64,000 nt of DNA from Opitutales bacterium (GTDB lineage: Bacteria; Verrucomicrobiota; Verrucomicrobiia; Opitutales; UBA2987). The DNA is taken from the NCBI GenBank assembly GCA_965226885.1, contig CBDDEL010000016.1, positions 736,001 to 800,000 on the forward strand, written 5' to 3'. The notes under the pieces are model-generated. The model had not been told where the DNA came from. It ran no database searches and was given only the letters and a program-made list of their open reading frames with translations. Positions 1 through 20,653 of the stretch are shown here, piece by piece; within the stretch, counting starts at the first letter, position 1; each line of letters starts with the position of its first letter. Position numbers and translations under genes: made by a program.

Positions 1-1212
1 CGGGAAAGCCTGCAAAAGATAATTTCAATCTGTTGCGACGGGCAAATCCCCGTCACCATAAGGGGCGGCGGGACCGGCAATTACGGCCAATGTATTCCGC
101 TATACGGGGGTGTCGTTCTCGATCTGGGGGGCATGGACCGTATTGTATCGATAAAGGATGGAGTGGCCAGGGTAGAACCGGGGGTGCGGCTGGTAACGAT
201 CGAAACCGAGGGGCGTAAACTTGGCTGGGAGCTGCGCTGCATGCCTTCTACCTTTGTCAAAAGCAGTGTTGCCGGTTTTCTCTGCGGCGGCTCCGCCGGA
301 ATCGGTTCGGTCACCTGGGGAGGGATCAACAACGACGACAATATAAAATCGATCACCTTAATGACGATCGAGGAAAAGCCGCGCCTCCTGAAGTTCAGGG
401 AGCGCGAATGCATGACATCCCTGCACACTTACGGAACGACCGGGATTCTGGTAGAGGCCGAGATCCGGCTGGCTCCCAAAGTGCCTTACGACCAGCACAT
501 CTTTATCGATTCCGATTGGGACAAATTACTCGACTGGGCCGATTCCATAGCTCAAAACCCGGCCATCCGCAAAAGGCTGGTGACGCAGTTTGAATGGCCC
601 ATCCCTTCCTATTTTCTGCCCCTGCGGCGATTCCTGCAAGAAGGCTTTCATTGCGTTTTTCTGTTGGTCGACAGGGAGCAAAGCGATGAAGTCAAGAAAA
701 GCGCCGAAAACATGGGCATTCGCCACACCCATACCATCGAATACAGGGAGCCATTGCGCCCCCCCTATCTGACGGACTACACCTGGAACCACACCACCCT
801 CTGGGCCATTAAAAAAGACAGCAAACTGACCTACAGCCAATTGAATCTGGGGGAAAATTTTCGAGGAAAAATCCGTTGCCTGTGGAATCGATTTCCGGGA
901 GAGATCATGATGCACCTGGAATGGATTAAGGGAATCCCCAAGTCTCAAAACACATATAGCGGCATCTTTTGCGGGTGCATGCCCCTGATCCGATTCCGAT
1001 CCGATGAGCGCCTGCGGGAAATTTCCCGTTACTGCCGTGAAATCGGGATTTTCGAGGCCAATCCGCATACTTTTTATCTGGAAGACGGCGCCGCCCATCC
1101 AGATATTGAAACCAAGCGGCAGCTCAAAACGGAAACGGATCCACTCGGCATTCTTAACCCCGGCAAAATGAGGACCTATCAAACCAATCCCTTCGAACCA
1201 ACTCCTGTCTGA
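1..1212 (+). CDS. FAD-binding oxidoreductase (FAD_binding_4/VAO-type), paralog 1, 5'-truncated by window edge
   Basis: Frame is open from base 1 (RESLQKIISICCDGQIPVTIRGGGTGNYGQCIP). It has the RGGGTG FAD loop, GFLCGGSAGIGS, WNHTTLWA and C-terminal DPLGILNPGK motifs. Confidence 0.9.
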   Translation, partial: RESLQKIISICCDGQIPVTIRGGGTGNYGQCIPLYGGVVLDLGGMDRIVSIKDGVARVEPGVRLVTIETEGRKLGWELRCMPSTFVKSSVAGFLCGGSAGIGSVTWGGINNDDNIKSITLMTIEEKPRLLKFRERECMTSLHTYGTTGILVEAEIRLAPKVPYDQHIFIDSDWDKLLDWADSIAQNPAIRKRLVTQFEWPIPSYFLPLRRFLQEGFHCVFLLVDREQSDEVKKSAENMGIRHTHTIEYREPLRPPYLTDYTWNHTTLWAIKKDSKLTYSQLNLGENFRGKIRCLWNRFPGEIMMHLEWIKGIPKSQNTYSGIFCGCMPLIRFRSDERLREISRYCREIGIFEANPHTFYLEDGAAHPDIETKRQLKTETDPLGILNPGKMRTYQTNPFEPTPV

Positions 1213-1229
1213 AACCAATTTTTCTGAGA

Positions 1230-2639
1230 ATGTTTAAAAATATGCCTGTTTCCATCAACGAAAACGTATTGACTGCATTTCGTGATGCGGCGGGGGAAAA
1301 TAATCTCCTCTCCCGGGTGGAAGATATAGAAAAGATTTCCAAGGATTTTTACTGGTATTCTCCCATTCTGCACCGGCAACTGAAGGACAAGAGAGCCAAC
1401 CTCGGCATCCGCATAAGCGACCTGGGTACGTTGAAAAAAGTAATCTCCCTATGCTGCCAAAATAAAATACCCCTGCAAGTGAGGGGAGCCGGCACGGGAA
1501 ACTATGGGCAATTGATTCCTCTACACGGCGGGGTCGTTCTCGATCTTGCGGGCTTAAACCGCTTGATCTCCCTCGACGTCGAAAATGGGGTGGTCCGGGC
1601 CGAGCCAGGTGCGCGGCTGGGCACGATTGAAACAGAAGCCCTCAAAACCGGCTGGGAATTGCGTTGCATGCCTTCGACCTGGGTCAAAAGCTCGCTCGGC
1701 GGATTCCTTTGCGGCGGGTCGGCCGGGATCGGGTCCATTACTTACGGCGGGCTAGATAACAAGGACAACATCAAGTCGGTCTCCCTCCTGACCATTGAAG
1801 AGGAGCCCCGGCTGCTCTGTTTCGAGGAACGGGAATGCATCAAAGCGCTGCACACTTACGGAAGCACCGGCATATTGGTGGAGGCGCAGATGCGTTTGGG
1901 CAAGAAAGTGCCCTACGAGCAGCATATCTTCATTTCCAAGGATTGGAACCAACTGACGGAGTGGGCCTTCAAGGTGGCCTGCGACAATACTTTGCGCAAA
2001 CGCGAGATCGCCCAATTCGAGTGGCCCATGCCTTCTTTTTTCCTGCCCTTGCGTAAATATGTTCCCGTTGGTTGCCACTGCATGTTCCTGCTGGTGGACG
2101 AGGCGCAGTCGCAACAAGTGATTAACGACGCCGCTCAATCGGGCATTGATCACACCCACAAACTGTTGTTTCGAGAACCCCCGCGACCTCCCTATCTGAC
2201 GGATTATACCTGGAATCACACTACTCTGTGGGCCATTAAAAAGGACTCGTCGTTCACCTATCTGCAATTGGGTATGGCGGAAAATTTCGCCGAACAATTG
2301 GAAATCCTGACTAGAAAATATCCCGGCGAAATCTTGCACCATCTGGAATTCACCAAAGGTTACACCAAAATGCGGGCGGTCGATTATGAAATCCTCTGTT
2401 TCGACCTCCCCCTGGTAAAATACAAGAATGAAACCCGCCTGCATGAAATGATGGATTTTTGCCAAGAAATTGGCATATCCTGCGCCAATCCGCATTCCTA
2501 TTTCCTGGAAGAAGGCGGCGGGCACGAAGATATGGATGAGAAACGCCAACTGAAAAAAATCACCGACCCCTTGGGCATCCTCAATCCCGGCAAAATGAAA
2601 TCCTACCCAACCAATCCCTTTTTAACAACCGGCTCATAG
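1230..2639 (+). CDS. FAD-binding oxidoreductase, paralog 2
   Basis: SKDFYWYSP, RGAGTGNYGQ, WNHTTLWA and DPLGILNPGK motifs; clearly similar to both neighbours. Confidence 0.9.
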   Translation: MFKNMPVSINENVLTAFRDAAGENNLLSRVEDIEKISKDFYWYSPILHRQLKDKRANLGIRISDLGTLKKVISLCCQNKIPLQVRGAGTGNYGQLIPLHGGVVLDLAGLNRLISLDVENGVVRAEPGARLGTIETEALKTGWELRCMPSTWVKSSLGGFLCGGSAGIGSITYGGLDNKDNIKSVSLLTIEEEPRLLCFEERECIKALHTYGSTGILVEAQMRLGKKVPYEQHIFISKDWNQLTEWAFKVACDNTLRKREIAQFEWPMPSFFLPLRKYVPVGCHCMFLLVDEAQSQQVINDAAQSGIDHTHKLLFREPPRPPYLTDYTWNHTTLWAIKKDSSFTYLQLGMAENFAEQLEILTRKYPGEILHHLEFTKGYTKMRAVDYEILCFDLPLVKYKNETRLHEMMDFCQEIGISCANPHSYFLEEGGGHEDMDEKRQLKKITDPLGILNPGKMKSYPTNPFLTTGS

Positions 2640-2668
2640 CCAAATTGTTCATTATTCGGACTATCTTT

Positions 2669-4057
2669 ATGGCAAATGCAAAATGTTTACTTCCAGAAAT
2701 CGACGATCGGATGATTTCCAGTTTTCAATCAGTGGTGGGGGAGGAAAATGTTCTCACCGATCATGATAGCGTGGAGAAATTATCCAAAGATTTTTATTGG
2801 TATTCCCCTATTCTGAAAAAACAACTGAAAGACAAACAGGCCGATATCGCCGTAAAAATCAGCGCTCTGGAGGAGTTGCAGGCGGCTGTTTCCATCTGCG
2901 CCAAAAATCGCCTCCCCATCACCCTGCGAGGCGGCGGCACCGGCAATTACGGCCAGTGTATCCCGCTCTACCGGGGGGTGGTGATCGATATCACAAACAT
3001 GAACCGGATTCTTTCCCTGGACAGAGGCGTGGCCAGGGTGGAGCCCGGCGCCCGGCTCTTTACCATTGAAACCGAGGCCCGCAAACTGGGTTGGGAAATG
3101 CGCTGCATGCCAACCACATTTGTCAAAAGCACCATGGGCGGATTTCTCTGCGGCGGTTCCGGGGGCATCGGTTCCATCACCCACGGCATGATCCGCACCG
3201 GGGACAACATGAAATCCGTCACCTTCATGTCGGCGGAGGAGAAACCGCGAATTCGCAAATTCGAGGAAGAGGAAGTTTTGACCACTTTGCACACCTACGG
3301 CACCAACGGCATTCTGGTAGAAGCGGAAATGCGCTTGGCCCCTCAAGTAATTTACGACCAGATGATTTTCGTCTCTCGCGATTGGGAGCGCCTTCTCAAT
3401 TGGACCGATGGAATCGCCCGCGACGAGGCCATCCACAAGCGGCTGGTGTCGATGTTCGAGTGGCCTGTGCCGGTAAATTTCCTGTCCCTGAAAAAATACC
3501 TGCCAGAAGGCTATCACGTCGTTTTCCTGACCGCCAAACAGGAGCAGTGCGCCGATCTCATTGTGGACGCCGAAAAGAACGGCATCGACCACACCCGCAC
3601 CATACCCCATACGGATCCCATGAGACCGCCTTACCTGAGCGATTTCACATGGAACCACACCACCCTGTGGGCCATGAAAAAGGATCCCACTATGACTAAT
3701 TACCAAGTGAGGTTCGGGCCGAATTTTCAGGAACAGATCCGGCTGCTGTGGAAAAAGTTTCCCGGCGAAATTCAAATGCACCTGGAATGGATCAAGGCGG
3801 ACGACGAACCGTTCCTCATCAGCCTTCCCCTCATTAAGTTTTCAACCGAGGAACGTCTGCAAGAAATGGCCAACTACTTCACGGAAATCGGGATAACTAC
3901 GGCGAACCCACACACTTATATTCTGGAGGAAGGCGGCATGCATCCTGACATCGAGAAAAAACGGGCTCTGAAAAAGGAAATGGACCCGCATGGCATTCTT
4001 AATCCGGGTAAAATGGCCACCTACCCCCACAACCCTTTTGCCAAAGCCATGGCCTGA
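2669..4057 (+). CDS. FAD-binding oxidoreductase, paralog 3
   Basis: Same motifs (SKDFYWYSP, RGGGTGNYGQ, DPHGILNPGK). ATG at 2669 preferred over TTG at 2645. Confidence 0.9.
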   Translation: MANAKCLLPEIDDRMISSFQSVVGEENVLTDHDSVEKLSKDFYWYSPILKKQLKDKQADIAVKISALEELQAAVSICAKNRLPITLRGGGTGNYGQCIPLYRGVVIDITNMNRILSLDRGVARVEPGARLFTIETEARKLGWEMRCMPTTFVKSTMGGFLCGGSGGIGSITHGMIRTGDNMKSVTFMSAEEKPRIRKFEEEEVLTTLHTYGTNGILVEAEMRLAPQVIYDQMIFVSRDWERLLNWTDGIARDEAIHKRLVSMFEWPVPVNFLSLKKYLPEGYHVVFLTAKQEQCADLIVDAEKNGIDHTRTIPHTDPMRPPYLSDFTWNHTTLWAMKKDPTMTNYQVRFGPNFQEQIRLLWKKFPGEIQMHLEWIKADDEPFLISLPLIKFSTEERLQEMANYFTEIGITTANPHTYILEEGGMHPDIEKKRALKKEMDPHGILNPGKMATYPHNPFAKAMA

Positions 4058-4098
4058 AAGTGGATTGATGCCCGCGCAAACCGTAAAACTTTAGCATT

Positions 4099-5814
4099 GT
4101 GATCGGCAAAGGACTGGAAAATGCATTTACCGGCGTCGACTTAATAGCGGGGGTCAAGGCCGAGATGCGGGACGGCACCCGGTTGGCAGCGGATATTTAC
4201 CAGCCAACGGCCGATGGAACCTATCCGGTTTTGCTGATGCGCATCCCCTACGGACGGGAGGTCGCTTCCACCCCCACTCTTGCCCACCCCGTTTATTTCG
4301 CCCGCCAGGGGTATATCGTGGTCATTCAGGATGTGCGTGGTCGAGGCGATTCGGAAGGGACGTTCGATCCCTTTCGTCAGGAAGTGAATGATGGCTACGA
4401 CTCCGTCATGTGGGCTTCGGAACTGGAAAAAGCGAGCGGCCAGGTGGGCATGTATGGATTTTCCTACATGGGTTTCACGCAATTGCTGGCGGCGTCGGCC
4501 CGGCCTCCCACGTTGCAGGCCATCGCTCCCATGATGACTGCCTTTGACTGGTATTCGGGGTGGTTCTACCGGGACGGTATATTGCAAGCGTCCAGCGCCC
4601 TTTACTGGATCAGCCAGATGCTCCGGGATGACGCCAAGCGCGCAAAATTGCCCGATTTTATGGATTACGATGATTGCTGGATGCATTTCGGGCGGCTTTG
4701 CTATGAAATGCCGTTGGTGCGGGCCGACCCGATTACCCGGCCCGAAGCGCCCACCTATGGCCGGGAATGGCTGGAACACAGCCGTTACGACGCCTATTGG
4801 AAGGAATTCGACCTCCTTGGCCGGATCGACGAATTGGATGTGCCCATATTTCATGGGTCGGGCTGGTACGATTTTTTCCTGCGGGGCAGCTATGATGGAT
4901 ACAAGGCCATGACGGCCGGGAAATCCGCCCACCGCGAAAACCAATTCATGCTGACCGGCCCCTGGACGCACATGCCGTGGGGTGACACCTTGGGAGACGA
5001 GAACTTTGGACCCGAGGGGAAAATCGATGTATCCGCCCTCCTCGTCCAATGGTTCGATTACTGGCTGAAAGGAATTGAGCCGAAAGACAAACTGCAAGGA
5101 ACGCGGTATTTTATCATGGGGGCAAACCAATGGCGCTCCTCACCCACCTGGCCCCCGCCCGAATCGCAACCGGTGGATTATTTTTTGCATTCACAAGGCT
5201 GCGCCAATTCCCGGTTCGGCGATGGAACCCTGGAGATAGAGCCGGGCACGGGAGTGGAAAATCTTTTCGTCTATGAGCCCGATTATCCAGTGCTGGCTCC
5301 CGGAGGCAATCAAAGCGGGGCGACTTTAGCGGGTCCATTCGACCAATCAGAGGCCCAGCAATACAACAACCTGCTGGTTTATACAACGAAGACCCTACAG
5401 GAAAACATTGTCGTGGTAGGACGTCCTGCCTGCCGTCTTTATGTCCGCAGTTCGGCTCCGGAAACCGATTTCGTGGTCAAGCTGACCCGCGTAACCCAAG
5501 ACGGAAAAGCCCTTTTCCTGACCCTGGGAGCCATTCGCCTCAGCCGGGGAATATGTGACGATAGTGGAGTAACCCAATTGAATATCGAGATGGACGACAC
5601 GGCCTGCCAATTTCAAAAGGGCGAGCGCATCCGCATCGATGTGGCTAGTTCAGCTTTTCCATTGATGATCCGCAACCCGAATACGGGGCTTTCACCGGAA
5701 AGGGTCTCCTCGCCGGCCGAATTTCAACGGGCCATGCAGGTGGTTTACAACGATGCCGAATACCCTTCCAAAGTGATCCTTCCGGTTATGGTTGAGGAAA
5801 ATGGAAACACTTAG
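4099..5814 (+). CDS. CocE/NonD family serine hydrolase
   Basis: MRDGTRLAADIY, QDVRGRGDSEG, nucleophile motif GFSYMG, GWYD, GPWTH and a C-terminal jelly-roll segment (RIRIDVASSAFP). Confidence 0.9.
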   Translation: MIGKGLENAFTGVDLIAGVKAEMRDGTRLAADIYQPTADGTYPVLLMRIPYGREVASTPTLAHPVYFARQGYIVVIQDVRGRGDSEGTFDPFRQEVNDGYDSVMWASELEKASGQVGMYGFSYMGFTQLLAASARPPTLQAIAPMMTAFDWYSGWFYRDGILQASSALYWISQMLRDDAKRAKLPDFMDYDDCWMHFGRLCYEMPLVRADPITRPEAPTYGREWLEHSRYDAYWKEFDLLGRIDELDVPIFHGSGWYDFFLRGSYDGYKAMTAGKSAHRENQFMLTGPWTHMPWGDTLGDENFGPEGKIDVSALLVQWFDYWLKGIEPKDKLQGTRYFIMGANQWRSSPTWPPPESQPVDYFLHSQGCANSRFGDGTLEIEPGTGVENLFVYEPDYPVLAPGGNQSGATLAGPFDQSEAQQYNNLLVYTTKTLQENIVVVGRPACRLYVRSSAPETDFVVKLTRVTQDGKALFLTLGAIRLSRGICDDSGVTQLNIEMDDTACQFQKGERIRIDVASSAFPLMIRNPNTGLSPERVSSPAEFQRAMQVVYNDAEYPSKVILPVMVEENGNT

Positions 5815-5862
5815 CGGTTGCCCTCGCGCGACAAAAAACCAAACTTTTTTTCGTTCACCGAA

Positions 5863-6633
5863 ATGGAGAATGCAAACGATACCCCACTGGTTCGCCTAAA
5901 GAACCTCCATAAGCGCTTCGGCGAGGGCGACACCGTTCTTGAGAACATCGATTTGGAGGCATCGGGGACGGATTTTATCGGTCTGATCGGTCCCAGCGGC
6001 TGCGGAAAATCAACCCTTCTCAAATTGATTTCGGGATTGACTCCGGTGACGGGTGGAAAGCTGGAAGTTAATGGCGGGAGCCCTGCCGCCGCCCGCGACC
6101 GGATGTCATACATCTTCCAGGATGCCACCCTCCTGCCCTGGCTAACCGTTCATAAAAACATTCAAACGACCATGCGCCTGCACGGGATCAACAAGAATGA
6201 ATGCATCCGCGTGGCCGATAAGATGGCGGCCATGGTGGGATTGGAAAAGGTCGTCAATTATTATCCCCGGCAGCTATCGGGGGGGATGCAAATGCGGGTC
6301 TCCATAGCCCGGGCCTTGAGTGTGTCGCCGCAAATCCTCCTTCTAGACGAGCCCTTTGGAGCCCTTGATGAAATGACGCGGGACCACCTCAACGAGGAGC
6401 TTTTAAGAATACGCTCGATGGAGTCATGGACGGCCTTTTTTGTCACCCATTCGGTGGCCGAAGCGGTCTTCCTGTCCACCGAAATAATCGTTTTAACCGC
6501 CAATCCGGGAACCATTTATAAAAAAATTGCCGTCGATTTCCCCTACCCTCGCACCGCTGAAACAAGAGAATCGCCCGAGTTTCAACGCCTGGTGGGGGAA
6601 GTTTCTCATCACTTGCGCTCGGTTGAACGGTAA
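5863..6633 (+). CDS. ABC transporter ATP-binding protein, NitT/TauT family
   Basis: Walker A GPSGCGKST, signature LSGGMQMR, Walker B LLLDEPFGALD, H-loop VTH. Start could be 5818. Confidence 0.92.
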   Translation: MENANDTPLVRLKNLHKRFGEGDTVLENIDLEASGTDFIGLIGPSGCGKSTLLKLISGLTPVTGGKLEVNGGSPAAARDRMSYIFQDATLLPWLTVHKNIQTTMRLHGINKNECIRVADKMAAMVGLEKVVNYYPRQLSGGMQMRVSIARALSVSPQILLLDEPFGALDEMTRDHLNEELLRIRSMESWTAFFVTHSVAEAVFLSTEIIVLTANPGTIYKKIAVDFPYPRTAETRESPEFQRLVGEVSHHLRSVER

Positions 6634-6654
6634 AGAGCCTCGATTTATTTCTTC

Positions 6655-7437
6655 ATGAAAAAGCATTTAGTGTGGATTTTGCCGACCATTACGGGATCCG
6701 TCATCATCGGGATTTGGTATTTTATCATTGTCGTTGGCGGCCAGCCGGACTACGTGCTGCCGTCTCCCTGGCAAATCCTGGAGGCCTGCGTCAATGAGCG
6801 GCATTTGCTGGTTCCGGCGGCTCTGAGGACAGGATTCGCGGCCATCGTCGGGTTTGTCACTGCAGTAGCCGGCGGCAGCCTTATCGGCCTCATCCTGGCC
6901 TCCTCGCGTTGGGTAAAAATGTCGTTTTACCCCTGGGTGCTGGTCATGCAAATGACGCCGCTGATCGTCATCGTGCCTATCTTTGTCCTCTGGTTTGGGG
7001 AAGGGCTGCCCAGCATAACGGCCATTACGTTCGGCATCTGTTTTTTCCCGGTGGTGGCCAATACGACGATGGGCCTCGTCTCCACCGATAAGAATTTGCT
7101 CGATTTATTCAAGATGAGCAACGCCTCCTTTACCCAGGAATTTTTTCTCCTGCGGGCTCCATATGCCCTCCCCTATTTTTTAACCGGAGTAAAGATCGCC
7201 GGTACCTTGGCACCCATTGGCGCCATAACGGGTGACTTTCTGGCGGGAACGGCCTCCACCTATGCCGGTTTGGGTTATCTGGTGCAAAACTACCGCAGCC
7301 AGATTATGACGGCGGAGCTTTTCGCGGTAGCCTTCGTCGGCTGCCTGATCGGGTTCATCTTCGTGTCGGCCGTAAATTTCGTCCATTGGTACTTGCTCCA
7401 CAACTGGCATGAATCCTCCCTTAAAGCCGAACATTAG
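6655..7437 (+). CDS. ABC transporter permease, NitT/TauT family
   Basis: About six hydrophobic segments, LPSP and FFPVVANT motifs, GLGYL. Confidence 0.9.
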   Translation: MKKHLVWILPTITGSVIIGIWYFIIVVGGQPDYVLPSPWQILEACVNERHLLVPAALRTGFAAIVGFVTAVAGGSLIGLILASSRWVKMSFYPWVLVMQMTPLIVIVPIFVLWFGEGLPSITAITFGICFFPVVANTTMGLVSTDKNLLDLFKMSNASFTQEFFLLRAPYALPYFLTGVKIAGTLAPIGAITGDFLAGTASTYAGLGYLVQNYRSQIMTAELFAVAFVGCLIGFIFVSAVNFVHWYLLHNWHESSLKAEH

Positions 7438-8467
7438 AAGATTCCCACTTTGGGTCTTTTGCATTCTGTTTAGCTGTCTGAGTCTCCATTTTTCAGGCTG
7501 CCGGCAAAATCCACGGGCTACCTCTACCCAGGAGGGCCGAATCCTGCATAAGGTTATCATGCAAACCGATTGGTATGCTCAGCCAGAGCACGGCGGTTTC
7601 TACAATGCGCTTATTAAGGGATATTATGAAGAAAATGGTTTGGATGTGGAAATTCGGCAAGGGGGCCCGTCCTCGGTGGGGACGGAGAGGGTGGCCACGG
7701 GCAAAGTCCACTTCAGCCTCAGCTCGACCGATCAAATTAGAATTTTCGTGGAACATGGGCTGCCTCTAATAGTGGTTTACGCTTATATGCAGCGGAGCCC
7801 ACAGGCAATCCTTCTGCATGAGGACAATCCGGTCAACACCTGGAAGGACCTGGATGGTAAGGAAATCATGGCGGCGCCGGGCGCTTCATGGACCTATTTG
7901 CTGCAAAATAAATACGATATTCAGTTTGGCATAATCCCCCTCGATATGGGGATGGGCAGATTCTTGATGGACAAAAATTTCATCCAACAGTGTTTTGTCA
8001 CCAACGAGCCTTATTTTATTCAACAAAAAGGAGTGAAATCGAAAACCATGCTCTTCGCCGATTCTGGTTTCAATCCCTACCGGGTGGTTTTTACGGACCA
8101 AAAGTTTGCCCGCGAATTCCCTGAATTAGTGAGCGCTTTCGTGGCCGCCTCCATGCAGGGCTGGCTCGACTATGTGGAGAACGCTCCGGCCGAAACCAAT
8201 GCTGAGCTTTTACGCCTCAACCCTGCCAATACTCCAGAATTTGTTGAATTTGCCATCAATGCCATGCGGGACTACCAACTAGTCTCCGGCAATCCCGAAG
8301 TGGGAGAATTTCATGCCAGGGTATCTCCTAGGCGGATACAAAGAAATATGCGCGACATGGTGGAAATTGGAGTCATCAAAAAAACGCTCCCGATGGCAGC
8401 CTATCTTTCTAACGAATTTCTTCCAGCGGAGACGCAAAAAGCCATCGCCCGGGCCGAGACCGAATAA
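7409..8467 (+). CDS. ABC substrate-binding lipoprotein, NMT1/THI5-like (1)
   Basis: Lipobox-like FSGC; QTDWYAQPEHGGFY, GLDVEIRQGGP and QCFVTNEPY motifs. Confidence 0.88.
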   Translation: MNPPLKPNIRRFPLWVFCILFSCLSLHFSGCRQNPRATSTQEGRILHKVIMQTDWYAQPEHGGFYNALIKGYYEENGLDVEIRQGGPSSVGTERVATGKVHFSLSSTDQIRIFVEHGLPLIVVYAYMQRSPQAILLHEDNPVNTWKDLDGKEIMAAPGASWTYLLQNKYDIQFGIIPLDMGMGRFLMDKNFIQQCFVTNEPYFIQQKGVKSKTMLFADSGFNPYRVVFTDQKFAREFPELVSAFVAASMQGWLDYVENAPAETNAELLRLNPANTPEFVEFAINAMRDYQLVSGNPEVGEFHARVSPRRIQRNMRDMVEIGVIKKTLPMAAYLSNEFLPAETQKAIARAETE

Positions 8468-8484
8468 ATTTTATCCCATTTTCA

Positions 8485-9525
8485 ATGAACGTAATTAGAA
8501 GAAAAAAGAAATTCCTTTTGGGACTGGTTTTATTACTGGCCGTTATGATTGTAGCGGGCTGCAAGAAAAAACATCACGCCACCGTCCTGAAAGATGGCAA
8601 GGAGCTAACCAAAATCATTCTGCAAACCGATTGGTACGCGCAGGCCGAGCACGGCGGTTTCTACAATGCCCTCTACAAGGGTTTTTATGAAAAGGCCGGT
8701 CTGGAGGTGGAAATTCACCAGGGCGGACCTAATTCCCTGGGGCCGGAACGCGTGGCCACGGGCAAGGCGCATTTTTCAATCACCCGGAGCGTCGAGATAA
8801 TGCTCTACGCTTCCCAAGGCATCCCGCTTATCATTGTTACGGCCTACATGCAGCGCGATCCGCAGGCACTTTTGCTCCATGCAGAAAACCCAGTCAAGAC
8901 CTGGAAAGACCTCGATGGCAAAATCATCATGAGCACTCCCGGAGTCTCCTGGACGATCTATCTGCAAAAGCAATTCGACATTGAGTTCCAAACCATAGCC
9001 GTGGATTACGGACTGGGGCGCTTTTTGACGGACAAGGATTTCATCCAGCAATGCTTCATCACCAACGAGCCTTATTATATGTCGGAAAAGGGCGTTGCGG
9101 TGAAAACCATGCTCATCGCGGATTCGGGTTTCAGCCCTTACAGGGTGGTTTACACCAATCGGAACTTTGCCCGTGAAAACCCAGATGCTGTGCGAGCTTT
9201 CGTAGCCGCCACCATCGACGGCTGGCGCGATTTCATTGAAAACGCACCGGACGAAACCCTACGCAAAATTTCCGAAATCAACCCCCAGATGAAGAGGGAT
9301 TTTATGGCCTATGGCATCAAGGCAATGAGGGAAAACGAACTTGTTGCGGGAAAAGCGGAAAAGGGGGAGCAATCGGGCTTGATCCTTCCCCTTCGCCTGC
9401 AAAAGCAGTTCGAGGAGCTGTTGAACCTGGGTGTAATTAAAAATCGCATTCCGGCTTCCGACTATATGTCGATCGACTACCTGCCCGAGGAACTGAAAAC
9501 GATCGCCCGGCAAAATCAGGATTGA
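8485..9525 (+). CDS. ABC substrate-binding lipoprotein, NMT1/THI5-like (2)
   Basis: Lipobox VAGC; QTDWYAQAEHGGFY and QCFITNEPY motifs. Confidence 0.88.
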   Translation: MNVIRRKKKFLLGLVLLLAVMIVAGCKKKHHATVLKDGKELTKIILQTDWYAQAEHGGFYNALYKGFYEKAGLEVEIHQGGPNSLGPERVATGKAHFSITRSVEIMLYASQGIPLIIVTAYMQRDPQALLLHAENPVKTWKDLDGKIIMSTPGVSWTIYLQKQFDIEFQTIAVDYGLGRFLTDKDFIQQCFITNEPYYMSEKGVAVKTMLIADSGFSPYRVVYTNRNFARENPDAVRAFVAATIDGWRDFIENAPDETLRKISEINPQMKRDFMAYGIKAMRENELVAGKAEKGEQSGLILPLRLQKQFEELLNLGVIKNRIPASDYMSIDYLPEELKTIARQNQD

Positions 9526-11348
9526 TGCGATTATCGACTTTACTGAAATTCCGGTACCAGAAGGCCGCGGGTAGTATTTTTTCTGTTTTACTCTTACTTT
9601 GGGCCGTATGGGGGACCGGTTGCGGTAAAATTGAGAACTCTTCCGGCCAATCGCAGGAACAGCCGCTGGAGAAGATCATCCTTCAAACCGAATGGTATGC
9701 GGAACCCGAGCATGGCGGATTTTACTACGCTTTAGTCGAAGGCTACTACCAAGAAGCCGGCCTGGATGTGGAAATCCGCCAGGGTGGCCCCAATGCCCTT
9801 GCCCCCGAAAAAGTGGCCACCGGCAAAGCCGATTTCGCTCTCTCTCGCAGCGATGAAGCCATTATCTACGCGGCCCGGAATTTGCCCGTCCGGGTCGTCA
9901 TGGCCTCAATGCAGAGAGACGCCCAGGCTCTTCTTTTGCACGAAGAAAACCCTGTTGAAACCTTCTCCGATTTAAACGGCAAAACCATCATGGCCACACC
10001 TGGCGCATCCTGGATCAAGATTTTGAAAAATCGCTACGGAATCGAATTCGATACCATTCCGAACGATTACGGCATGGGCCGGTTCCTGACCGACAAATCC
10101 TTTATCCAGATGTGTTTTGTGACCAACGAGCCTTATTATGCGCGGCTCCGCGGAGCCCACCCAAAGACCCTGCTCCTAGCGGATTCCGGCTATAACCCTT
10201 ATCGGTCGGTATTAACCAATCACAAATTCGCCCAGGAGCATCCCGATCTGGTTCGCGCCTTCGTGTCGGCCTCCATTCGTGGTTGGCGAAACTACATGGC
10301 GGGGAACCGATCGCGCACCAACACTCACATCGCCTCATTGAATCCACAGATGACCGAGGAGTTCATGGAATTCATCCTCGACACAATTGAAGATTACAAG
10401 CTGGTCCAAGGCTATAAGGAACAGGGAGAAAGGCTGGGATTGGTCACCGCAAAACGGATGCAAGAGCAAATGGACGCGCTGCTTGAGAACGGCATCCTGA
10501 AAAAAGCATTACCTTTGGATTCTTTTTTTACCAACGAATTCCTGCCCGATGAACTGCGCGATTGGCAGAAAGTGGGTTCGCCCCCGGCAATTGCCCTGGC
10601 CGACGAGCGGCATTCGCCGGACGATTTGAGGATCAGAGGGCCAATCCGGGGCTTCGAGCCGTATCAACCCCTTTATATCAGCTACGAGGATCTTTTAAAA
10701 ATGCCGACCGAAACAATTGTCACCGACATTGTCTGGCTTGGCCAGGACCGCCAGACAACCGTCCTCGATCTCGAAACGCTGCGGGAATCCCTCGGCATTG
10801 AGGAGTTAACGGATTTCGTTCTGGCCGATTGCCGGGATGGCTATGAGGCCAATTTCGATGCCAAAGTATTAATAGAAAACAAGCCTTTCCTAGTCCTGCA
10901 AATCGATGGTTTTCCGCCTAAAAGAGGAGGCCGGGGTATGGGCGGTAATTTGTATTACCTGAATCTGAAAAATGAAAACGGAATACTTAACCCGGAACAT
11001 AAAAAACCCTTCGGAGTAACCGGCCTTGAATTCACCCGCCGCCAATTCAAATTGGAAGAACTCTACCGGGGCACTCTTACCGACCTGTCCCCACAGGCCG
11101 CCCGGGGGCGGGAAATTTATGTGGGAAGCTGCCTTAGCTGCCACCGGCCCCTCTCCGGCCAGTTCGGCGGAACACTCTCCAATCGCAACCTTGAGGCGAT
11201 CGCCGCACAGGCAAAATACAACCGGCAATATTTTCTCAACTGGGTGCGGGACCCGCAGGATTTAATTGAAGGCGTGGCCATGAGCCCCCATCCTTATCCC
11301 GAGGAAATGATGAACCAACTAATCGCTTTTCTGGAAAATATCCCCTGA
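9525..11348 (+). CDS. NMT1/THI5-like substrate-binding lipoprotein fused to a molybdopterin-oxidoreductase-like domain and C-terminal class I cytochrome c
   Basis: The first ~350 aa are paralogous to the two upstream SBPs (lipobox GTGC, QTEWYAEPEHGGFY). These are followed by LRIRG..ISYEDLLKMP..ADCRDGY..LQIDG..KPFGVTGLEF, then RGREIYVGSCLSCH (CxxCH) with distal Met in WVRDPQ..GVAM. Confidence 0.8.
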   Translation: MRLSTLLKFRYQKAAGSIFSVLLLLWAVWGTGCGKIENSSGQSQEQPLEKIILQTEWYAEPEHGGFYYALVEGYYQEAGLDVEIRQGGPNALAPEKVATGKADFALSRSDEAIIYAARNLPVRVVMASMQRDAQALLLHEENPVETFSDLNGKTIMATPGASWIKILKNRYGIEFDTIPNDYGMGRFLTDKSFIQMCFVTNEPYYARLRGAHPKTLLLADSGYNPYRSVLTNHKFAQEHPDLVRAFVSASIRGWRNYMAGNRSRTNTHIASLNPQMTEEFMEFILDTIEDYKLVQGYKEQGERLGLVTAKRMQEQMDALLENGILKKALPLDSFFTNEFLPDELRDWQKVGSPPAIALADERHSPDDLRIRGPIRGFEPYQPLYISYEDLLKMPTETIVTDIVWLGQDRQTTVLDLETLRESLGIEELTDFVLADCRDGYEANFDAKVLIENKPFLVLQIDGFPPKRGGRGMGGNLYYLNLKNENGILNPEHKKPFGVTGLEFTRRQFKLEELYRGTLTDLSPQAARGREIYVGSCLSCHRPLSGQFGGTLSNRNLEAIAAQAKYNRQYFLNWVRDPQDLIEGVAMSPHPYPEEMMNQLIAFLENIP

Positions 11349-11371: not shown

Positions 11372-12586
11372 CTAGCGGCCCCGGCGGATGACGGAACCTT
11401 CAAAACTGATGCGGAAGCGGTAACATTGCTTGGTCCTGGTGATAATCTGGAAAGTTTCCCGGTCGATTTTGTCTGGAATCTCATACCGGCGTATGTCCAC
11501 CACAGCGTGATACCCGCGTTCGGAAAAAATGTCGATGAGCATGGCCAGGGCCAGAGAGTGGTCAAAGGTTTTTGATTCCGAATTAATATAGGCCATTCCC
11601 GATATGGCATGTGTTACCACGATGGGCAAAAATTTACTTTGTATCAACCTTACCACCTTCTTGAATAATTCGGTGTGGTTTCGCTCGTATTCGTCCAACC
11701 GCTGGATGAGCTCCTGGCGGGCGTGGATGACGATATTGCTGGCAACTGGAATAGTCTGCAGGCGTTCGTAGGTAGCGCCCTCCAGTTCGAGGGAACTTTG
11801 GTAGCGCAGCTCTTTAACGATGCGGCCCTGAACTTCCCGAATGCTTTCATGGGCATCGATAAAATGGTAGTAAAAAACTTCGCGGAGGGACTTGAGGGCC
11901 TCGTAGGTTATCTCTTTAAACGTGCGGTAACGGTTGCGGGCAGCTTCCTCGTTGAGGTCCGTTTTGCGCAGTTCTATGATATCTCCCATTCCCGAGGTGC
12001 GCACTTGCTCGTTGTGCTCCATGCACATTCGTCCCCGCAGAAGCTGCCGGTCAATGCTCTCCCCCTCATCGATGAAGAGTACCACGATATGGAAGGTGAA
12101 CTTTTTCAGGTTTGTCTTGATACCCTTATCAAGACGGTTGCGCCTAAGTTGTATTACTTTATTGTACAATAGCTTAAGGCACTCCACCTGCACTTTGGTG
12201 CGGGGATAGCCATCGATAACGGCGCCGCTTTTGTATTCGGAGTCGAGCAATTTTTTAAAAACCAGGCGCGTCACCTCGCGGTCTCCCACCATGAGGCCGG
12301 CATCTTTCATCCGCACCGCCTCGGGACTTTTCAGCAATTCGCTGACGATCACCGGATGTGCCGTCATATCCCGAAAATTCATGATAAATTTAGTTTGTGT
12401 GCCCTTCCCTGCTCCGGGGGCTCCATTGAGCCAGAATAATTCGTTGGGAAAACGGATGTTATCTTCCCCGATTTCTTCCAGCAGACTCGCCCACACGGAT
12501 TCAAAAATCAGATGGGCGTCCTTGATCTCGAGATCGCGGGTATTCTTTACGGTAATCTGTTCGCCGATGACAGTTTTATTCGACAT
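11372..12586 (-). CDS. adk: Adenylate/nucleoside monophosphate kinase with long C-terminal extension
   Basis: P-loop [16 protein letters not shown] and IDGYPRT motifs; 404 aa, about twice the length of a normal Adk. Confidence 0.75.
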
Positions 12587-13951: not shown

Positions 13952-14070
13952 CTTGCATCGATGGTGAGGGGAGAAAAAGGTCCATTGATCGCTATGAGGA
14001 AGTCGCCTGTCTCAACCGGACTTGAAATTTTCCCCATTTTGCCGCTCATGGAAAAAATATCCACTAAATA

Positions 14071-15888
14071 GAGGCTGTCCCAAAAATATAAAGATTTTAT
14101 AGTCAACTGGATGACGTTGATAAAAAGAGCCGGAAAGAGCAAGTTTTTGCTCGATCCGGCCAAAAAAGGGTTCTATAATTGAGTTAGCGAAAATCAATAT
14201 AGCCCTTTCTATGAAAAATATAGCCATCCAATGCCTCCTGCGTCCAGCTTTAACTGTGGTCGACCGGTGCCTCGATTACGATAACTTCCGCGCCACCATT
14301 GATCGAATCGATCGGCTGCTGATCGACTCGGAGGTTGAATCGCAGGCCATTGAGCTGGCCTTGGAGGGGTGGCCGCCAATGGGTCTAAAGGCCCGGCGGC
14401 AGCGGGCCAGTTTTGCCATCAAGGCACTGCGCATGGATACGCTGGGCCGTCTGCTCGGAGGGATTTCGTTTCGGCATTTGTCGCGGGCTCTGGGCAGCAG
14501 CGATCTGTTGGCCGACTTTTGCCGTGTCCGGCAGATCGATGGCATCAGGGGCATCTCCAAAAGCACCCTGGAGCGGGCCTCGAAGTTTTTCAGCGAAGAG
14601 CAGTTGAGGGCCTTGCACCGGACCTTGACTGAGGTGGTGGCCGATGCCCTTCTGGCCCGGCAGGTGGGATTGGACAAGCCGATTGACCCCACCATTTGCC
14701 TGATCGACGGCACCTGTTTGGAGGCTAACATTCATTGGCCGACGGACTGGGTATTACTCAAGGATGTAGCCGGCACGTTGCTCAAAGCGATCCGGCTGAT
14801 CCGCGAGAAGGCCGGTTTGCGCCATCGCATGCCGATCGAACCGGAGCCCTTGGCTCGGCAGATGAATCGGCTGTGCATACAGATGACCCACAGCCGGCGG
14901 CGAAAGGACAGCGCGCGGCAGCGCAAGGGTATCTTGAGGCAGATGAAAAAGCTGCTCAAACGGATCGGGGAGCATGCCCGCAGTCACCGGGAATTATTGC
15001 AAGCCTGCTGGGAGCAAAGCGATTACAGCGAAAAACAGGTCCAACAGATCCTCGCCCGGATGGAGCGCATGAGCGAGCAAATCCCGGTGGTCATCAAACA
15101 GGCGCACGAGCGGATCATTGGCGGCCGCCAGGTGAAAAACGCAGAGAAAGTCTTGAGTGTTTACGAACTCGATGGGCAGGTGATTGTGCGAGGTAAAGCG
15201 GGCCAAGAGGTCGAGTTCGGCAACACCCTGTTTTTGGGAGAAAGCGTTGAAGGGTACCTGCTGGACTGGAAACTCTACGGCAGCCGAACTCCAAGCGAAA
15301 ATGAACAAATGCAAGAGAGTTTGCAAAGACAGAACCGCTTCAACCTGGAAGAACCCATAGCGGCCATGTGCGCGGACCGGGGATTTGCCTCCCAGCGGGC
15401 CCGCCGGCAGTTAGCCCAGGAGGGAATCTACGACGCGCTCTGTCCACGCGATCCGAAGCAGTTGAAAAAACGGATGGAGGAACCACTGTTCAGACAATTG
15501 CAAAAGCGCCGGGCCAGCACCGAAGGGCGGATCGGGGTATTGAAGAATCGCTGGCAGGCCGGGCGGTTGCGCAGCAAAGGCTTTGCCAACCGCTCGATCA
15601 GCGTAGCCTGGTCGGTACTCTCGCACAACCTATGGAAAGTAGCCAAGATGCTGGCCCAGCAAGACGAACTAAAAACCAAAGCGGCGGCCTAGAGAGAGCG
15701 GAAAAGCAAGGACAATACTTTTTCACAGCCTTACTGTCGGCTCATACAAAGAAAACCAGGCAACCGGACCCCAAAACCAGTATCCTAACGTCATAGGAGA
15801 GCAAAGTTGATACTCTCCCAAATGCAAATACCTCTAAAATGAGCGCCTATCAAAAGCCCTCGCAAAATCACCCTTTTGGGACAGCCTC
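14071..15888 (+). mobile_element. IS element type A (IS5/IS1182-like DDE), copy 1
   Basis: 15-bp terminal IRs GAGGCTGTCCCAAAA / TTTTGGGACAGCCTC; flanked by direct repeat TAAATA (14065-14070, 15889-15894); three near-identical copies in the window. Confidence 0.93.
14211..15692 (+). CDS. DDE transposase, intact
   Basis: IDGTCLEANIHWPTD, GKAGQEVEFG, ADRGF and RRASTEGRIGVLK motifs. Confidence 0.92.
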   Translation: MKNIAIQCLLRPALTVVDRCLDYDNFRATIDRIDRLLIDSEVESQAIELALEGWPPMGLKARRQRASFAIKALRMDTLGRLLGGISFRHLSRALGSSDLLADFCRVRQIDGIRGISKSTLERASKFFSEEQLRALHRTLTEVVADALLARQVGLDKPIDPTICLIDGTCLEANIHWPTDWVLLKDVAGTLLKAIRLIREKAGLRHRMPIEPEPLARQMNRLCIQMTHSRRRKDSARQRKGILRQMKKLLKRIGEHARSHRELLQACWEQSDYSEKQVQQILARMERMSEQIPVVIKQAHERIIGGRQVKNAEKVLSVYELDGQVIVRGKAGQEVEFGNTLFLGESVEGYLLDWKLYGSRTPSENEQMQESLQRQNRFNLEEPIAAMCADRGFASQRARRQLAQEGIYDALCPRDPKQLKKRMEEPLFRQLQKRRASTEGRIGVLKNRWQAGRLRSKGFANRSISVAWSVLSHNLWKVAKMLAQQDELKTKAAA

Positions 15889-15955
15889 TAAATAATGATA
15901 AAGGGTTGACGGCCTTGCGGCAGGGTCTTTTTTAGGTCAATTTCAAACAGAGTCG

Positions 15956-17029
15956 ATGAGCTATAAACTATACATACCAGGTCCGGTGGAAGTTTCGGCG
16001 AAAACCTACGAGGCCATGGCCACGCCGATTTTCGGCCACCGCGCACCCGAATTTGCTTCGCTTTACAACCGTATCCAGCCGGGCCTGCAAACATTGTTCG
16101 GAACTTGCGACCCGGTTTACCTATTCACCAGCAGTTCCTGGGGGGCTATGGAGGCGGCCGTACGCAATGTCGTCGGCAAAAAGGTTTTAAACTGCATGTG
16201 TGGGGCATTCTCCGACAAATGGCATGATGTCAGCCGGGCCTGCGGAAAGGAGGCCGGCGCCCTGCGTTTTCCATGGGGCCGTTCCGTCGATCCGTCAGCC
16301 GTGGCCGCAGAACTGGCCACCGGTCAATACGATGCCATAACCATCGTTCATAATGAAACCTCGACCGGCCTGATGAACCCGCTGGCGGAATTGATGGAGG
16401 CTGTGCGGGATTTTCCCGAGGTAATCTCGATTGTCGATGCCGTCAGCTCTCTTGCCGCGGTTCCCATCCCAAAGGACGAATGGGGCATCGACATTTTGCT
16501 GACCGGAACACAGAAGGCTCTTGCCATCCCCCCCGGCCTGGCTCTTTGCTCGGTTTCAAAAAAGGCATTGGATCGAGCCGCCCAAATTCCCGGCCGAGGA
16601 TCTTATTTCGATTTTTTGAATTTTCACCAAAATCACCTCAAGAGCATGACGCCGACCACTCCTAGTATCACTCTTATTCACGCCCTTGAATCGAAATTGA
16701 AGGAAATTTTTGAAGAGGGACTGGAAAACCGCTACGCTCGCCACGCCAAACTCAACGCCTTGGTGCACGATTGGGTAGCGCGCAATGGTTTCGCCCTCTT
16801 CCCGAAAAAGGAATTCGCTTCCAAATCGCTCACTTGCGTCGAAAATACCCGTCAAATCGACGTTCCAAAATTCATCGATCTTCTCAAGGAACGGCATAAT
16901 TACGTCATTGATGGCGGGTATGGAAAAATCAAGGGCCGGACCTTCCGCATTTCCAATATGGGAAATGAAACCGAAAAAACAATCGGACAATTGCTGGACA
17001 ATCTCGACAACATTCTTACCGCATTGTAA
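15956..17029 (+). CDS. Class V PLP aminotransferase (alanine-glyoxylate/serine-pyruvate family)
   Basis: IPGP, HNETSTG, VDAVSS, GTQKALAIPPG (PLP Lys) and FRISNMG motifs. Confidence 0.9.
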   Translation: MSYKLYIPGPVEVSAKTYEAMATPIFGHRAPEFASLYNRIQPGLQTLFGTCDPVYLFTSSSWGAMEAAVRNVVGKKVLNCMCGAFSDKWHDVSRACGKEAGALRFPWGRSVDPSAVAAELATGQYDAITIVHNETSTGLMNPLAELMEAVRDFPEVISIVDAVSSLAAVPIPKDEWGIDILLTGTQKALAIPPGLALCSVSKKALDRAAQIPGRGSYFDFLNFHQNHLKSMTPTTPSITLIHALESKLKEIFEEGLENRYARHAKLNALVHDWVARNGFALFPKKEFASKSLTCVENTRQIDVPKFIDLLKERHNYVIDGGYGKIKGRTFRISNMGNETEKTIGQLLDNLDNILTAL

Positions 17030-17074
17030 TTCTTAAATTTTGAATGTCCTGAATCCTTTTTATCTTTCATAAAA

Positions 17075-19567: not shown

Positions 19568-19618
19568 CATTTTTCGGGATCGATTTTAACTTAAATTTTC
19601 CAAGGAAAAAAAACTGCC

Positions 19619-20653
19619 ATGCCCATCGCCACACCAAAACAATTTGCCCAAATGCTGGATGCCGCCCAACAGGCCGATTACGCCTACCCGGCCGTCAATT
19701 GCAGCTCGATTATTACCATCAACGCCGCCCTCAAAGGTTTTGCCGATTGCAAATCCGACGGGCTCATCCAATTTTCCACCGGGGCGGGGCAATTTGCCTC
19801 CGGCCTAAACAACAATAATCCCACTTACGGCTGCATTCTTTTGGCCGAAGCAGCCCATCGTCTGGCCGAACAATACGACGTTGTCATCGCATTAAACACG
19901 GACCATTGCCAACCCGAAAAAGCGGAAAGCTTTTTGCAACCCCTGATCGAGGAAACGGCCAAACGCCGGGCTCGAGGCGAAAGCAATCTGTTTCAAAACC
20001 ACATGCTCGACGCCTCCGCCCTTCCTCTCGAGGAGAACATGGCCTTGAGCAAGGAGTATCTCAAGCTTTGCGCCGAACAGGAGATCATTCTCGAAGTCGA
20101 GGCCGGAGTTGTCGGGGGCGAGGAGGACGGCGCAGCGGGCAGCGAGGACACCCCTTCGGAAAAAATGTACACCACACCGGAGGATATGGTCGCCGTTCAT
20201 GAAGCGCTCCACGGGCTGGGCCGTTTTACCTTTGCAGCCACTTTCGGCAATGTGCATGGTCATTACAAACCGGGCGCTGTCCAACTGCGGCCCGAAATTC
20301 TCCAACAAGGCCAGGAAGCCGTCATCTCACGTTATGGGCCCGAGGCTGAATTCGATTTGGTTTTCCACGGCGGTTCAGGCAGCGAGTTATCGCAAATCCG
20401 GGAAACGCTTGCCTACGGTGTCATCAAAATGAACATCGATACCGACACTCAGTATGCTTTCACTCGGCCCATCGCTGATCACATGTTGAAAAACTACGAC
20501 GGCGTCATGATGATTGACGGAGATATCGGCACCAAAAAATCCTACGATACCCGCTCCTACCTGAAAAAAGCGGAGGCCGCCATGGCCGCCAGGGTCAGTC
20601 GTGGCTGTGACGACCTGCGATCGACCGGCCATACTTTGTTCGGCCAAATTTAA
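19619..20653 (+). CDS. fbaA: Class II fructose-bisphosphate aldolase
   Basis: TDHC, GVVGGEEDG, FGNVHG, VFHGGSGS and KMNIDTDTQ motifs. Confidence 0.95.
   Translation: MPIATPKQFAQMLDAAQQADYAYPAVNCSSIITINAALKGFADCKSDGLIQFSTGAGQFASGLNNNNPTYGCILLAEAAHRLAEQYDVVIALNTDHCQPEKAESFLQPLIEETAKRRARGESNLFQNHMLDASALPLEENMALSKEYLKLCAEQEIILEVEAGVVGGEEDGAAGSEDTPSEKMYTTPEDMVAVHEALHGLGRFTFAATFGNVHGHYKPGAVQLRPEILQQGQEAVISRYGPEAEFDLVFHGGSGSELSQIRETLAYGVIKMNIDTDTQYAFTRPIADHMLKNYDGVMMIDGDIGTKKSYDTRSYLKKAEAAMAARVSRGCDDLRSTGHTLFGQI

Follow-up and report, generated by a model that had tools for sequence, protein, structure and literature searches.

A three-flavoenzyme operon of an Opitutales bacterium as a candidate system for pteridine uptake and breakdown

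Which compounds are taken up and converted by the proteins encoded in the first 11.3 kb of this 64,000-nucleotide stretch of an Opitutales genome (contig CBDDEL010000016.1, abbreviated C16, positions 736001-800000; the whole stretch is called the window below)? An earlier note on the window had described this operon as nine co-directional, tightly packed genes for three paralogous flavin adenine dinucleotide (FAD) oxidoreductases, a CocE/NonD-family hydrolase, an ATPase/permease pair of an ATP-binding cassette (ABC) transporter and three substrate-binding proteins (SBPs), and had proposed that they serve the uptake and catabolism of N-heterocycles. Our listing of open reading frames (ORFs) and scans with Pfam and NCBIfam models bore out the layout, with all nine genes on the plus strand and intergenic gaps of -29 to +41 nt, and the proposal was supported by deaminase and creatininase genes in the neighbourhood and by flavoenzymes that are not of the GlcD type. 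On balance, and with some reservation, the operon is probably a genus-specific, expanded version of a conserved cluster for the uptake and oxidative catabolism of pterin-type (pteridine) heterocycles. Besides the operon itself, we analyzed the upstream segment C16:716001-736000 (L001) and related loci holding operon homologues (L002, L003, L004 and L017). The genes and domains of the operon are as follows (gathering scores: 26.4 for PF01565 and 20.5 for PF09084).

1..1212, plus strand: FAD1, a flavoprotein of the VAO/PCMH fold, of which the 3' 403 codons lie in the window (PF01565, 1.8e-20, 73.5 bits)
1230..2639, plus strand: FAD2, a VAO/PCMH-fold flavoprotein of the 6v42 clade (PF01565, 77.7 bits)
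2645..4057, plus strand: FAD3, the third paralogue (PF01565, 7.8e-26, 90.9 bits)
4099..5814, plus strand: CocE/NonD-family serine hydrolase of the S15 fold, cytoplasmic (TIGR00976, 423.5 bits versus a cut-off of 66.3)
5818..6633, plus strand: ABC ATPase of the NitT/TauT (taurine/nitrate/sulfonate) type (PF00005)
6655..7437, plus strand: ABC permease (PF00528)
7409..8467, plus strand: SBP1, a lipoprotein of the NMT1/THI5 type (PF09084, 3.1e-32, 112.7 bits)
8485..9525, plus strand: SBP2, a lipoprotein of the NMT1/THI5 type (PF09084, 1e-33, 117.5 bits)
9522..11348, plus strand: SBP3, the whole gene, encoding a fusion protein of 608 residues (ORF listing)
9522..10556, plus strand: NMT1/THI5 domain of SBP3, with lipobox (PF09084, 1.2e-35, 123.8 bits)
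10611..11042, plus strand: small SUOX-fold, PruR-like domain of SBP3 (residues ~364-507; no Pfam match, fold match of an AlphaFold2 model)
11064..11348, plus strand: mono-haem class I c-type cytochrome domain of SBP3 (CLSCH plus conserved Met; weak Pfam, profile and fold matches)

The true start of FAD1 lies 173-230 nt upstream of the window, and its full ORF runs from -230 to 1212. The three flavoproteins are 53-60% identical to each other (FAD1 shares 57% with FAD2 and 60% with FAD3) and match PF01565 (FAD_binding_4) as their only Pfam family. The motifs TWNHTTLWA, HLE and NPH were found in all three translations, and the variable stretch YSQLNLG / YLQLGMA / NYQVRFG occurs in them as the earlier note had quoted it; FAD3 retains every family-invariant column of our 25-sequence alignment of the family (A1). 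Among the protein structures in the PDB, FAD2 matched 6v42 (6v42/6v43) with an E-value of 1.6e-73 across residues 29-459, i.e. over its full length, and the second-best family, the D-lactate dehydrogenases, was matched with 6e-12 in the FAD domain only (residues 67-224). The AlphaFold2 model of FAD2 (mean predicted local distance difference test, pLDDT, 79, based on A1) gave Z 39.5 with 6v42, with a root-mean-square deviation of 2.4 Å over 429 residues, compared to Z 28.2 for the runner-up. 6v42 is the only close solved relative of these flavoproteins, and its entry title is 'flavin oxygenase with cofactor bound involved in folate catabolism'. Full-text literature searches yielded no paper describing 6v42 or a folate-catabolic flavin oxygenase and no published reaction, and a literature search on the gene combination of the cluster yielded nothing describing it; the title of the PDB entry is the sole public trace of the function of the cluster that we found. 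The family is large (7142 proteins at E <= 0.001 among 8000 candidates), and its named members are called only 'FAD/FMN-containing dehydrogenase'.

The earlier note had set two outcomes against its own proposal, namely that the flavoenzymes map to glycolate or D-lactate dehydrogenase and that the SBPs bind only sulfonate or nitrate. Together, they would make the operon an ordinary sulfonate/nitrate/taurine ABC importer beside 2-hydroxyacid dehydrogenases of the glycolate or D-lactate type. Indeed, the ATPase and the permease scored best with taurine, nitrate and sulfonate models (for the ATPase these NCBIfam models were TauB, NtrCD and SaoA, each under its cut-off), the SBPs matched the SsuA family weakly, and the FAD domains matched GlcD models. 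However, these scores were far below the cut-offs: 55-62 bits versus 567.9 for GlcD/glycolate oxidase (TIGR00387, over ~110 residues) and 33.6-37.2 bits versus 163.5 for the aliphatic sulfonate SBPs (SsuA family, TIGR01728). Furthermore, the matches to GlcD and to the D-lactate dehydrogenases of the PDB spanned the FAD-binding domain only, the Pfam scan of FAD1-3 did not find PF02913 (FAD-oxidase_C), and the conserved neighbours are deaminase-like and creatininase genes. We conclude that this interpretation is highly improbable.

The transport genes encode three NMT1-type lipoprotein SBPs beside one translocator of the NitT/TauT type. The SBPs share 50-55% identity with one another, and a signal peptide with a lipobox Cys is visible in the translation of each. 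The best PDB matches of SBP2 were 4nmy (2.9e-13) and the formylaminopyrimidine-binding protein 3ix1 (7e-9). The operon resembles the ThiY/ThiXYZ and RibY-type importers in the PF09084 fold family of its SBPs and in the type of its translocator; the ligands of those importers are pyrimidine-containing vitamin fragments. It differs from them in its weak similarity to the solved members (E-values of 7e-9 to 3e-13), in having three SBPs per translocator and in the fusion of one SBP to two extra domains. Every intact NMT1 SBP of the genome belongs to this operon. A further NMT1-type match (G000:C14:283396-284004, minus strand) has an internal TAA stop codon.

The extension of SBP3 provided another lead to the substrate. 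Residues 346-608 had no Pfam match ahead of the cytochrome, including none to Oxidored_molyb, but they aligned with standalone proteins of ~295 residues in 13 related loci and with fused forms in L003 and L017. An alignment of 16 sequences of this two-domain module (A2) was the source of an AlphaFold2 model (pLDDT 82), which we compared with 48,161 PDB representatives. The first domain matched the PruR structures 7kp2 ('putative pterin binding protein', Z 13.8, 132 of 138 residues) and 7rkb (with neopterin, Z 13.3), followed by SoxC (Z 12.6) and SorT (Z 11.4), both of which are enzymes of 370-390 residues. The last 90 residues matched cytochromes c by fold (Z ~7, up to 7.5), and the module profile matched the cytochrome c domain of caa3 oxidase subunit II (2yev_B) with an E-value of 4.3e-8; in SBP3 itself, PF13442 and PF00034 stayed under their gathering scores (21-22.6 versus 27). 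The haem-c motif CLSCH is present in SBP3, and C192, C195, H196 and M242 are invariant in 16/16 sequences of A2. By its CxxCH motif, distal Met and fold, the module contains a class I c-type cytochrome.

PruR is a truncated sulfite-oxidase-fold protein in which the pterin is held between a Tyr and a Trp, with an H-bonding Asn, the Trp replacing the Mo-ligand Cys; PruR-type proteins are periplasmic and bind reduced pterins (PMC11194511). In A2, the motif D-G-Y is invariant, as is a Cys two residues ahead of it, an aromatic residue is found within H-K-K-P-(W/F/Y), and, in our own reading, the hairpin that binds molybdenum in SUOX enzymes lacks a conserved Cys. We infer from the motif order that D-G-Y and the H-K-K-P aromatic residue correspond to the N-x-Y and the stacking Trp of PruR. 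The similarity to PruR of Agrobacterium tumefaciens, Vibrio and Klebsiella lies in a periplasmic SUOX-fold domain of ~140 residues, which covers nearly the whole PruR chain in the fold match, and in its location on a lipoprotein or secreted protein. However, the identity is 13-17%, the domain is always followed by a c-type cytochrome, and the PruR operon has a DcpA-type GGDEF-EAL membrane protein, whereas the module adjoins or is fused to NMT1 SBPs in a catabolic cluster. Since its neighbours are NMT1 SBPs, ABC genes and TonB-dependent receptors and not a DcpA-type GGDEF-EAL protein, the SBP3 domain has a PruR-like fold but is not a member of the PruR-DcpA system. With the sulfite dehydrogenases SorAB/SorT and SoxCD (Z 11.4-12.6) it shares the pairing of a SUOX-fold domain with a periplasmic class I cytochrome c, but these enzymes have a full molybdenum cofactor domain plus a dimerization domain (370-390 residues, compared to ~140 here), and in our module the Oxidored_molyb match is absent and the Mo-ligand cysteine was not recognized.

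In an exhaustive profile search for the module, E-values of 0.001 or lower were reached by 1017 cluster representatives and of 1e-30 or lower by 99; most are ~280-300 residues long. Of 14 relatives scanned with Pfam, nine have an N-terminal NMT1 domain, one a C-terminal Pterin_4a domain (PF01329, 8.8e-22) and one a SnoaL domain. The relative fused to pterin-4a-carbinolamine dehydratase (P0175) has a signal peptide; that fused to the SnoaL-like domain is P0123. In the ESM Atlas, the SUOX-like part gave low scores (0.79) to small clusters annotated as Oxidored_molyb, which we regard as a lead only and not as evidence. Judging from the modelled fold, SBP3 carries a previously undescribed domain, predicted to bind pterins, that is joined to a cytochrome c. 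This unannotated pairing, often fused to an SBP, would tie periplasmic pterin chemistry to transport.

The earlier note had proposed that the fused cytochrome serves as a redox partner of the flavoenzymes. This is unlikely: FAD1-3 and CocE have no signal peptide, as read from their N-termini, and SBP3 has a signal peptide and lipobox, so the cytochrome is periplasmic and cannot directly take electrons from cytoplasmic flavoenzymes. A bolder possibility is that the module acts as a periplasmic pterin:cytochrome c oxidoreductase of a new kind, coupled to an SBP. The old molybdopterin pocket would then bind a free reduced pterin as substrate, which would be oxidized to the aromatic form, its electrons would pass via the haem to the respiratory chain (an aa3-type oxidase and a dihaem cytochrome c are encoded beside the locus here and in L003), and the oxidized product would go to the fused or neighbouring NMT1 SBP, to be imported and catabolized. 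We advance this only tentatively and consider it unlikely.

The earlier note had also mentioned an association of this flavoenzyme subfamily with creatininase and cytosine/pterin deaminase genes. This association is real: genes of both kinds lie upstream of the operon, and both stand beside homologues on Rhizobium, Agrobacterium and Pantoea plasmids. The upstream features are as follows.

L001:4159-4953, minus strand: creatininase-family gene (PF02633, 213.6 bits)
L001:4956-5717, minus strand: creatininase-family gene, divergent (PF02633, 35.8 bits versus 31.3)
L001:5757-6359, minus strand: DUF2165 gene (upstream scan)
L001:6411-7763, plus strand: nucleobase permease of the xanthine/uracil family (upstream scan)
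L001, between this permease and the oxidase operon: DDE transposase
L001:10604-15696 (C16:726604-731696), plus strand: operon for a dihaem cytochrome c and an aa3-type cytochrome c oxidase
L001:15973-17280, minus strand: cytosine-deaminase-like amidohydrolase (NCBIfam NF005759, 460.3 bits versus 403)
Between the amidohydrolase and what remains of the dead fourth SBP: IS3 insertion sequence (IS) element
L001:17315-19746 (C16:733315-735746), just upstream of the window: divergent pseudogene of a fourth NMT1 SBP

The ORFs L001:2014-2658 and 2662-4053 had no Pfam matches, are not conserved in the related loci and were dropped from the system. The aa3 oxidase operon separates the creatininase, DUF2165 and permease genes from the amidohydrolase gene both here and in L003; in other Opitutales these genes are contiguous.

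Relatives found by protein search were all in Opitutales or other Verrucomicrobiota metagenome-assembled genomes (MAGs). A BLAST map of 36 related genome loci showed a recurring core, in which a deaminase-like gene is divergent from genes for the flavoenzyme, ATPase, permease and NMT1 SBP. The deaminase-like gene was present in 24/36 loci (several others are cut by contig ends), the two creatininase paralogues in 16/36 and 17/36, and DUF2165 in 23/36. The SUOX-fold/cytochrome module lies 3.3-8.3 kb from the flavoenzyme gene in all 15 related loci that have it, and in nine of these 15 it is fused to an NMT1 SBP or is at most 300 nt away from one. Of 39 metagenome loci of at least 9 kb, 36 contain an NMT1 SBP, 21 the flavoenzyme and 15 the deaminase-like gene; where the latter two are missing, in many cases the locus simply ends at the 8-kb flank. 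The gene following the SBP in the related loci is usually that of a TonB-dependent receptor. In L003 such a gene follows SBP3; in the genome studied here, the orthologue (88% identity) and some of the intergenic DNA are found on a different contig (G000:C10:89839-91898), and the 3' neighbourhood of the operon is therefore rearranged.

Beyond this order, the flavoenzyme had 140 matching records among proteobacterial plasmids, three of which we inspected. On Rhizobium johnstonii pRL12, a run of genes encodes a creatininase, LysR, an NMT1-type SBP, ATPase and permease, a 'cytosine deaminase', the FAD enzyme, an NAD(P)H oxidoreductase and RidA, and it adjoins a three-subunit PaoABC-like molybdoenzyme. 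The flavoenzyme homologue of this run matches 6v42 with an E-value of 1.6e-215, and components of the run have counterparts in our locus with 30-40% identity. The Agrobacterium and Pantoea plasmids carry variants with creatininase and RidA. The core set of flavoenzyme, deaminase-like amidohydrolase, creatininase and ABC transporter is widely conserved, from Rhizobium, Agrobacterium and Pantoea plasmids to Opitutales MAGs. Our locus and those of 6v42 and its plasmid homologues (annotated 'FAD-binding oxidoreductase') have in common full-length homology, fold and WNHTT/HLE/NPH motifs of the flavoenzyme, as well as the cytosine-deaminase-like, creatininase and NMT1-type ABC transporter neighbours; in contrast to them, our locus has three tandem paralogues instead of one and an additional CocE hydrolase, and the RidA, LysR and NAD(P)H oxidoreductase neighbours are absent.

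How bacteria degrade pterins and fragments of folate is only beginning to be worked out. A hitherto undescribed pterin degradation pathway was reportedly proposed from genomic context by Fan et al. in 2013 (Arad3529). In 2025, Doi et al. published a molybdenum-dependent lumazine pathway encoded by pterin/lumazine degradation cluster I of Cupriavidus sp. LA-1; according to these authors, the Rhizobiales lumazine-degradation clusters carry a cytosine-deaminase-like protein that is likened to the pterin deaminase Arad_3529 (PMC12391406). Together with this statement, the confirmed association with deaminase and creatininase genes is therefore a pointer to pteridines. The Cupriavidus cluster resembles our locus in the substrate class proposed here and, in the Rhizobiales versions, in the cytosine-deaminase-like protein. 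However, its route proceeds via lumazine dehydrogenase (a molybdenum enzyme), an isomerase and a UbiD decarboxylase, all three of which are absent from our locus, and a term search of the text did not find a VAO-fold flavoenzyme there (PMC12391406). Five genes of the xanthine oxidase family are present elsewhere in the genome. Our locus belongs to a second, widespread gene set, with a VAO-fold flavoenzyme, cytosine-deaminase-like and creatininase-like enzymes and an NMT1 ABC importer.

The same neighbours can be read in another way, with the same architecture serving a different class of N-heterocycles, such as cytosine and its modified forms, cyclic amidines resembling creatinine or hydantoin, or breakdown products of the thiamine pyrimidine. 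The amidohydrolase passes the cytosine deaminase equivalog, the solved proteins closest to it are E. coli CodA (7.8e-30) and AtzC, creatininase-family genes are conserved partners, the ligand of 3ix1 is N-formyl-4-amino-5-aminomethyl-2-methylpyrimidine, and a nucleobase permease is close by. These observations are opposed by the naming of folate catabolism in the 6v42 title, the PruR-like fold on SBP3, the module relative fused to pterin-4a-carbinolamine dehydratase and the occurrence of cytosine-deaminase-like proteins in lumazine clusters, as stated by Doi et al. We regard another heterocycle class as possible, although rather unlikely.

By analogy, three pointers make pteridines the most likely substrates: the 6v42 title with the Rhizobium context, the PruR-like fold of the SBP3 domain, and the Pterin_4a fusion. 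The xanthine/uracil-family permease in the same neighbourhood is supporting context. Several points weigh against this assignment. Only the first two pointers are independent in kind, and all three are non-biochemical; the substrate of every protein of the locus is predicted from sequence or fold. The folate/pterin link of the flavoenzyme family rests on the title of a PDB entry with which FAD1-3 share no more than 32-40% identity. The PruR match is confined to the fold (17% identity), PruR and SoxC are within ~1 Z unit of each other and effectively tied, and a search of PDB sequences with the module profile returned cytochrome domains only and did not reach PruR. Furthermore, NF005759 labels the amidohydrolase a cytosine deaminase, and the nearest solved SBP with a named ligand (3ix1) binds a derivative of the thiamine pyrimidine and not a pterin. 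The locus has no lumazine dehydrogenase, isomerase or UbiD-type gene, and the related-genome and metagenome loci are mostly from Opitutales or look-alikes, i.e. their contexts are not independent.

If the substrates are pteridines, the three SBPs would capture related heterocycles and share one translocator. For SBP3, the PruR-like domain and the cytochrome c might bind pterins in the periplasm, and possibly convert them by redox chemistry, ahead of uptake. In the cytoplasm, the cytosine-deaminase-like amidohydrolase would strip the exocyclic amino group (a pterin-to-lumazine type of reaction), the three VAO-fold flavoenzymes would oxidize or oxygenate differently substituted rings, the two creatininase-family proteins would open cyclic amides, and the CocE-type hydrolase would cleave an acyl or ester side chain. 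The hydrolase matched PF02129 (2.2e-64) and PF08530 (7.3e-30) as well as cocaine esterase (2.8e-75), and it contains G-F-S-Y-M-G, G-W-Y-D and G-P-W-T-H, which we take to be the catalytic triad positions of CocE. Its gene is found at the same position in 6/36 related loci.

Pterins might also be acquired as cofactors or signals instead of being degraded, since the host may be unable to make folate-type pterins via HPPK and may import external ones and adjust their redox state. Searches for HPPK (PF01288) were negative in this genome (96% complete) and in all eight genomes of the same family that were searched, compared to its presence in 13/22 other families of the order. The genome likewise gave no match for GTP cyclohydrolase I (PF01227), although the type IB enzyme is present; the sole Pterin_bind match lies in a frame of 1252 codons, the size of methionine synthase, and there are two Pterin_4a genes. 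This pattern suggests a possible folate auxotrophy of the family. The periplasmic binding of reduced pterins by PruR-type proteins would fit acquisition as well. However, the conserved deaminase-like enzyme, the ring-amide hydrolases and the three oxidative flavoenzymes resemble destruction and not salvage, an imported pterin could not be rebuilt into folate without HPPK and DHPS, and the absence calls rest on single Pfam models and draft genomes. Acquisition without degradation is thus quite improbable, and we retain uptake for breakdown as the preferred reading. Because HPPK and GTP cyclohydrolase I were not found, a role of external pterins is worth testing; with a host genus apparently lacking HPPK, their ecological role becomes a testable question.

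How did the threefold sets of enzymes and SBPs arise, and are they maintained? In a quick maximum-likelihood tree, FAD1-3 and their orthologues from L002-L004 formed one clade inside Opitutales (Shimodaira-Hasegawa-like approximate likelihood ratio test, SH-aLRT, 98) with long stem branches. SBP1-3 likewise formed one clade in FastTree (support 98), the dead fourth SBP falling in a separate, older clade. Whole-genome searches located the flavoenzyme in each of four further genomes of the genus (three of these gave three or four matches), in 0/4 genomes of other genera of the family and in 2/22 other families of the order. As the earlier note had suggested, the triplications of enzyme and SBP are parallel, and the trees and whole-genome counts confine them to one lineage. 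Three different residues are fixed across FAD1, FAD2 and FAD3 in 12 of 245 comparable columns, which are scattered over positions 59-457 (FAD2 numbering); position 349 is within the variable motif quoted above and 425 just past NPH, and clustering of the separating columns around the pocket was not evident. With its three diverged enzyme/SBP pairs, the Opitutales version is a natural system for mapping specificity.

The ratio of nonsynonymous to synonymous substitution rates (dN/dS) relative to the L003 orthologues was 0.058-0.169 for the ten genes compared, the lowest value being that of the permease (94% identity, dN/dS 0.058). The earlier note had called the operon IS-free and intact and had taken this as a sign of selection. 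The description holds for the nine genes, but directly upstream the fourth SBP is a pseudogene disrupted by IS3: a 7-nt insertion after the signal peptide shifts the frame, and an IS3 interrupts the gene near codon 283, cutting off the last 80 codons. In L003 its orthologue is intact (362 residues). The argument from IS-freeness is weak, given that the window has another IS-free gap of 12.2 kb (15904-28087) and that the operon of the closest relative carries two insertions. In this relative (L002, ~89% identity), a DDE transposase lies between FAD3 and CocE and an IS3 within the ATPase gene (L002:13006-15108 and 17402-18974), and the FAD1 and amidohydrolase frames are also split. Purifying selection is better shown by the dN/dS of 0.06-0.17 than by the lack of IS elements, and the operon is intact and constrained here, but it is not immune to decay. 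The IS copies in the window are as follows.

14054-15903, 28088-29948, 34970-36264, 41701-42848, 43218-44557, 51932-53774, 55922-57266 and 62811-63999: eight IS copies

All eight lie outside the operon, and their families each have 34 to 154 further near-identical copies in the genome. The upstream IS3 has 49 other copies, and the IS families of the upstream segment have up to 212. In this genome, IS elements have recently multiplied on a massive scale.

Scanned against Rfam, the promoter region and the first two genes had zero matches at E up to 1, and promoter and terminator counts were not above those in shuffled sequence. Downstream of the operon, an unusually long ADK-like protein of 404 residues is encoded next to lpxK (11372-12586, minus strand); its adenylate-kinase-like P-loop domain is confined to residues 50-260 and scores far below the cut-offs of all adk models.

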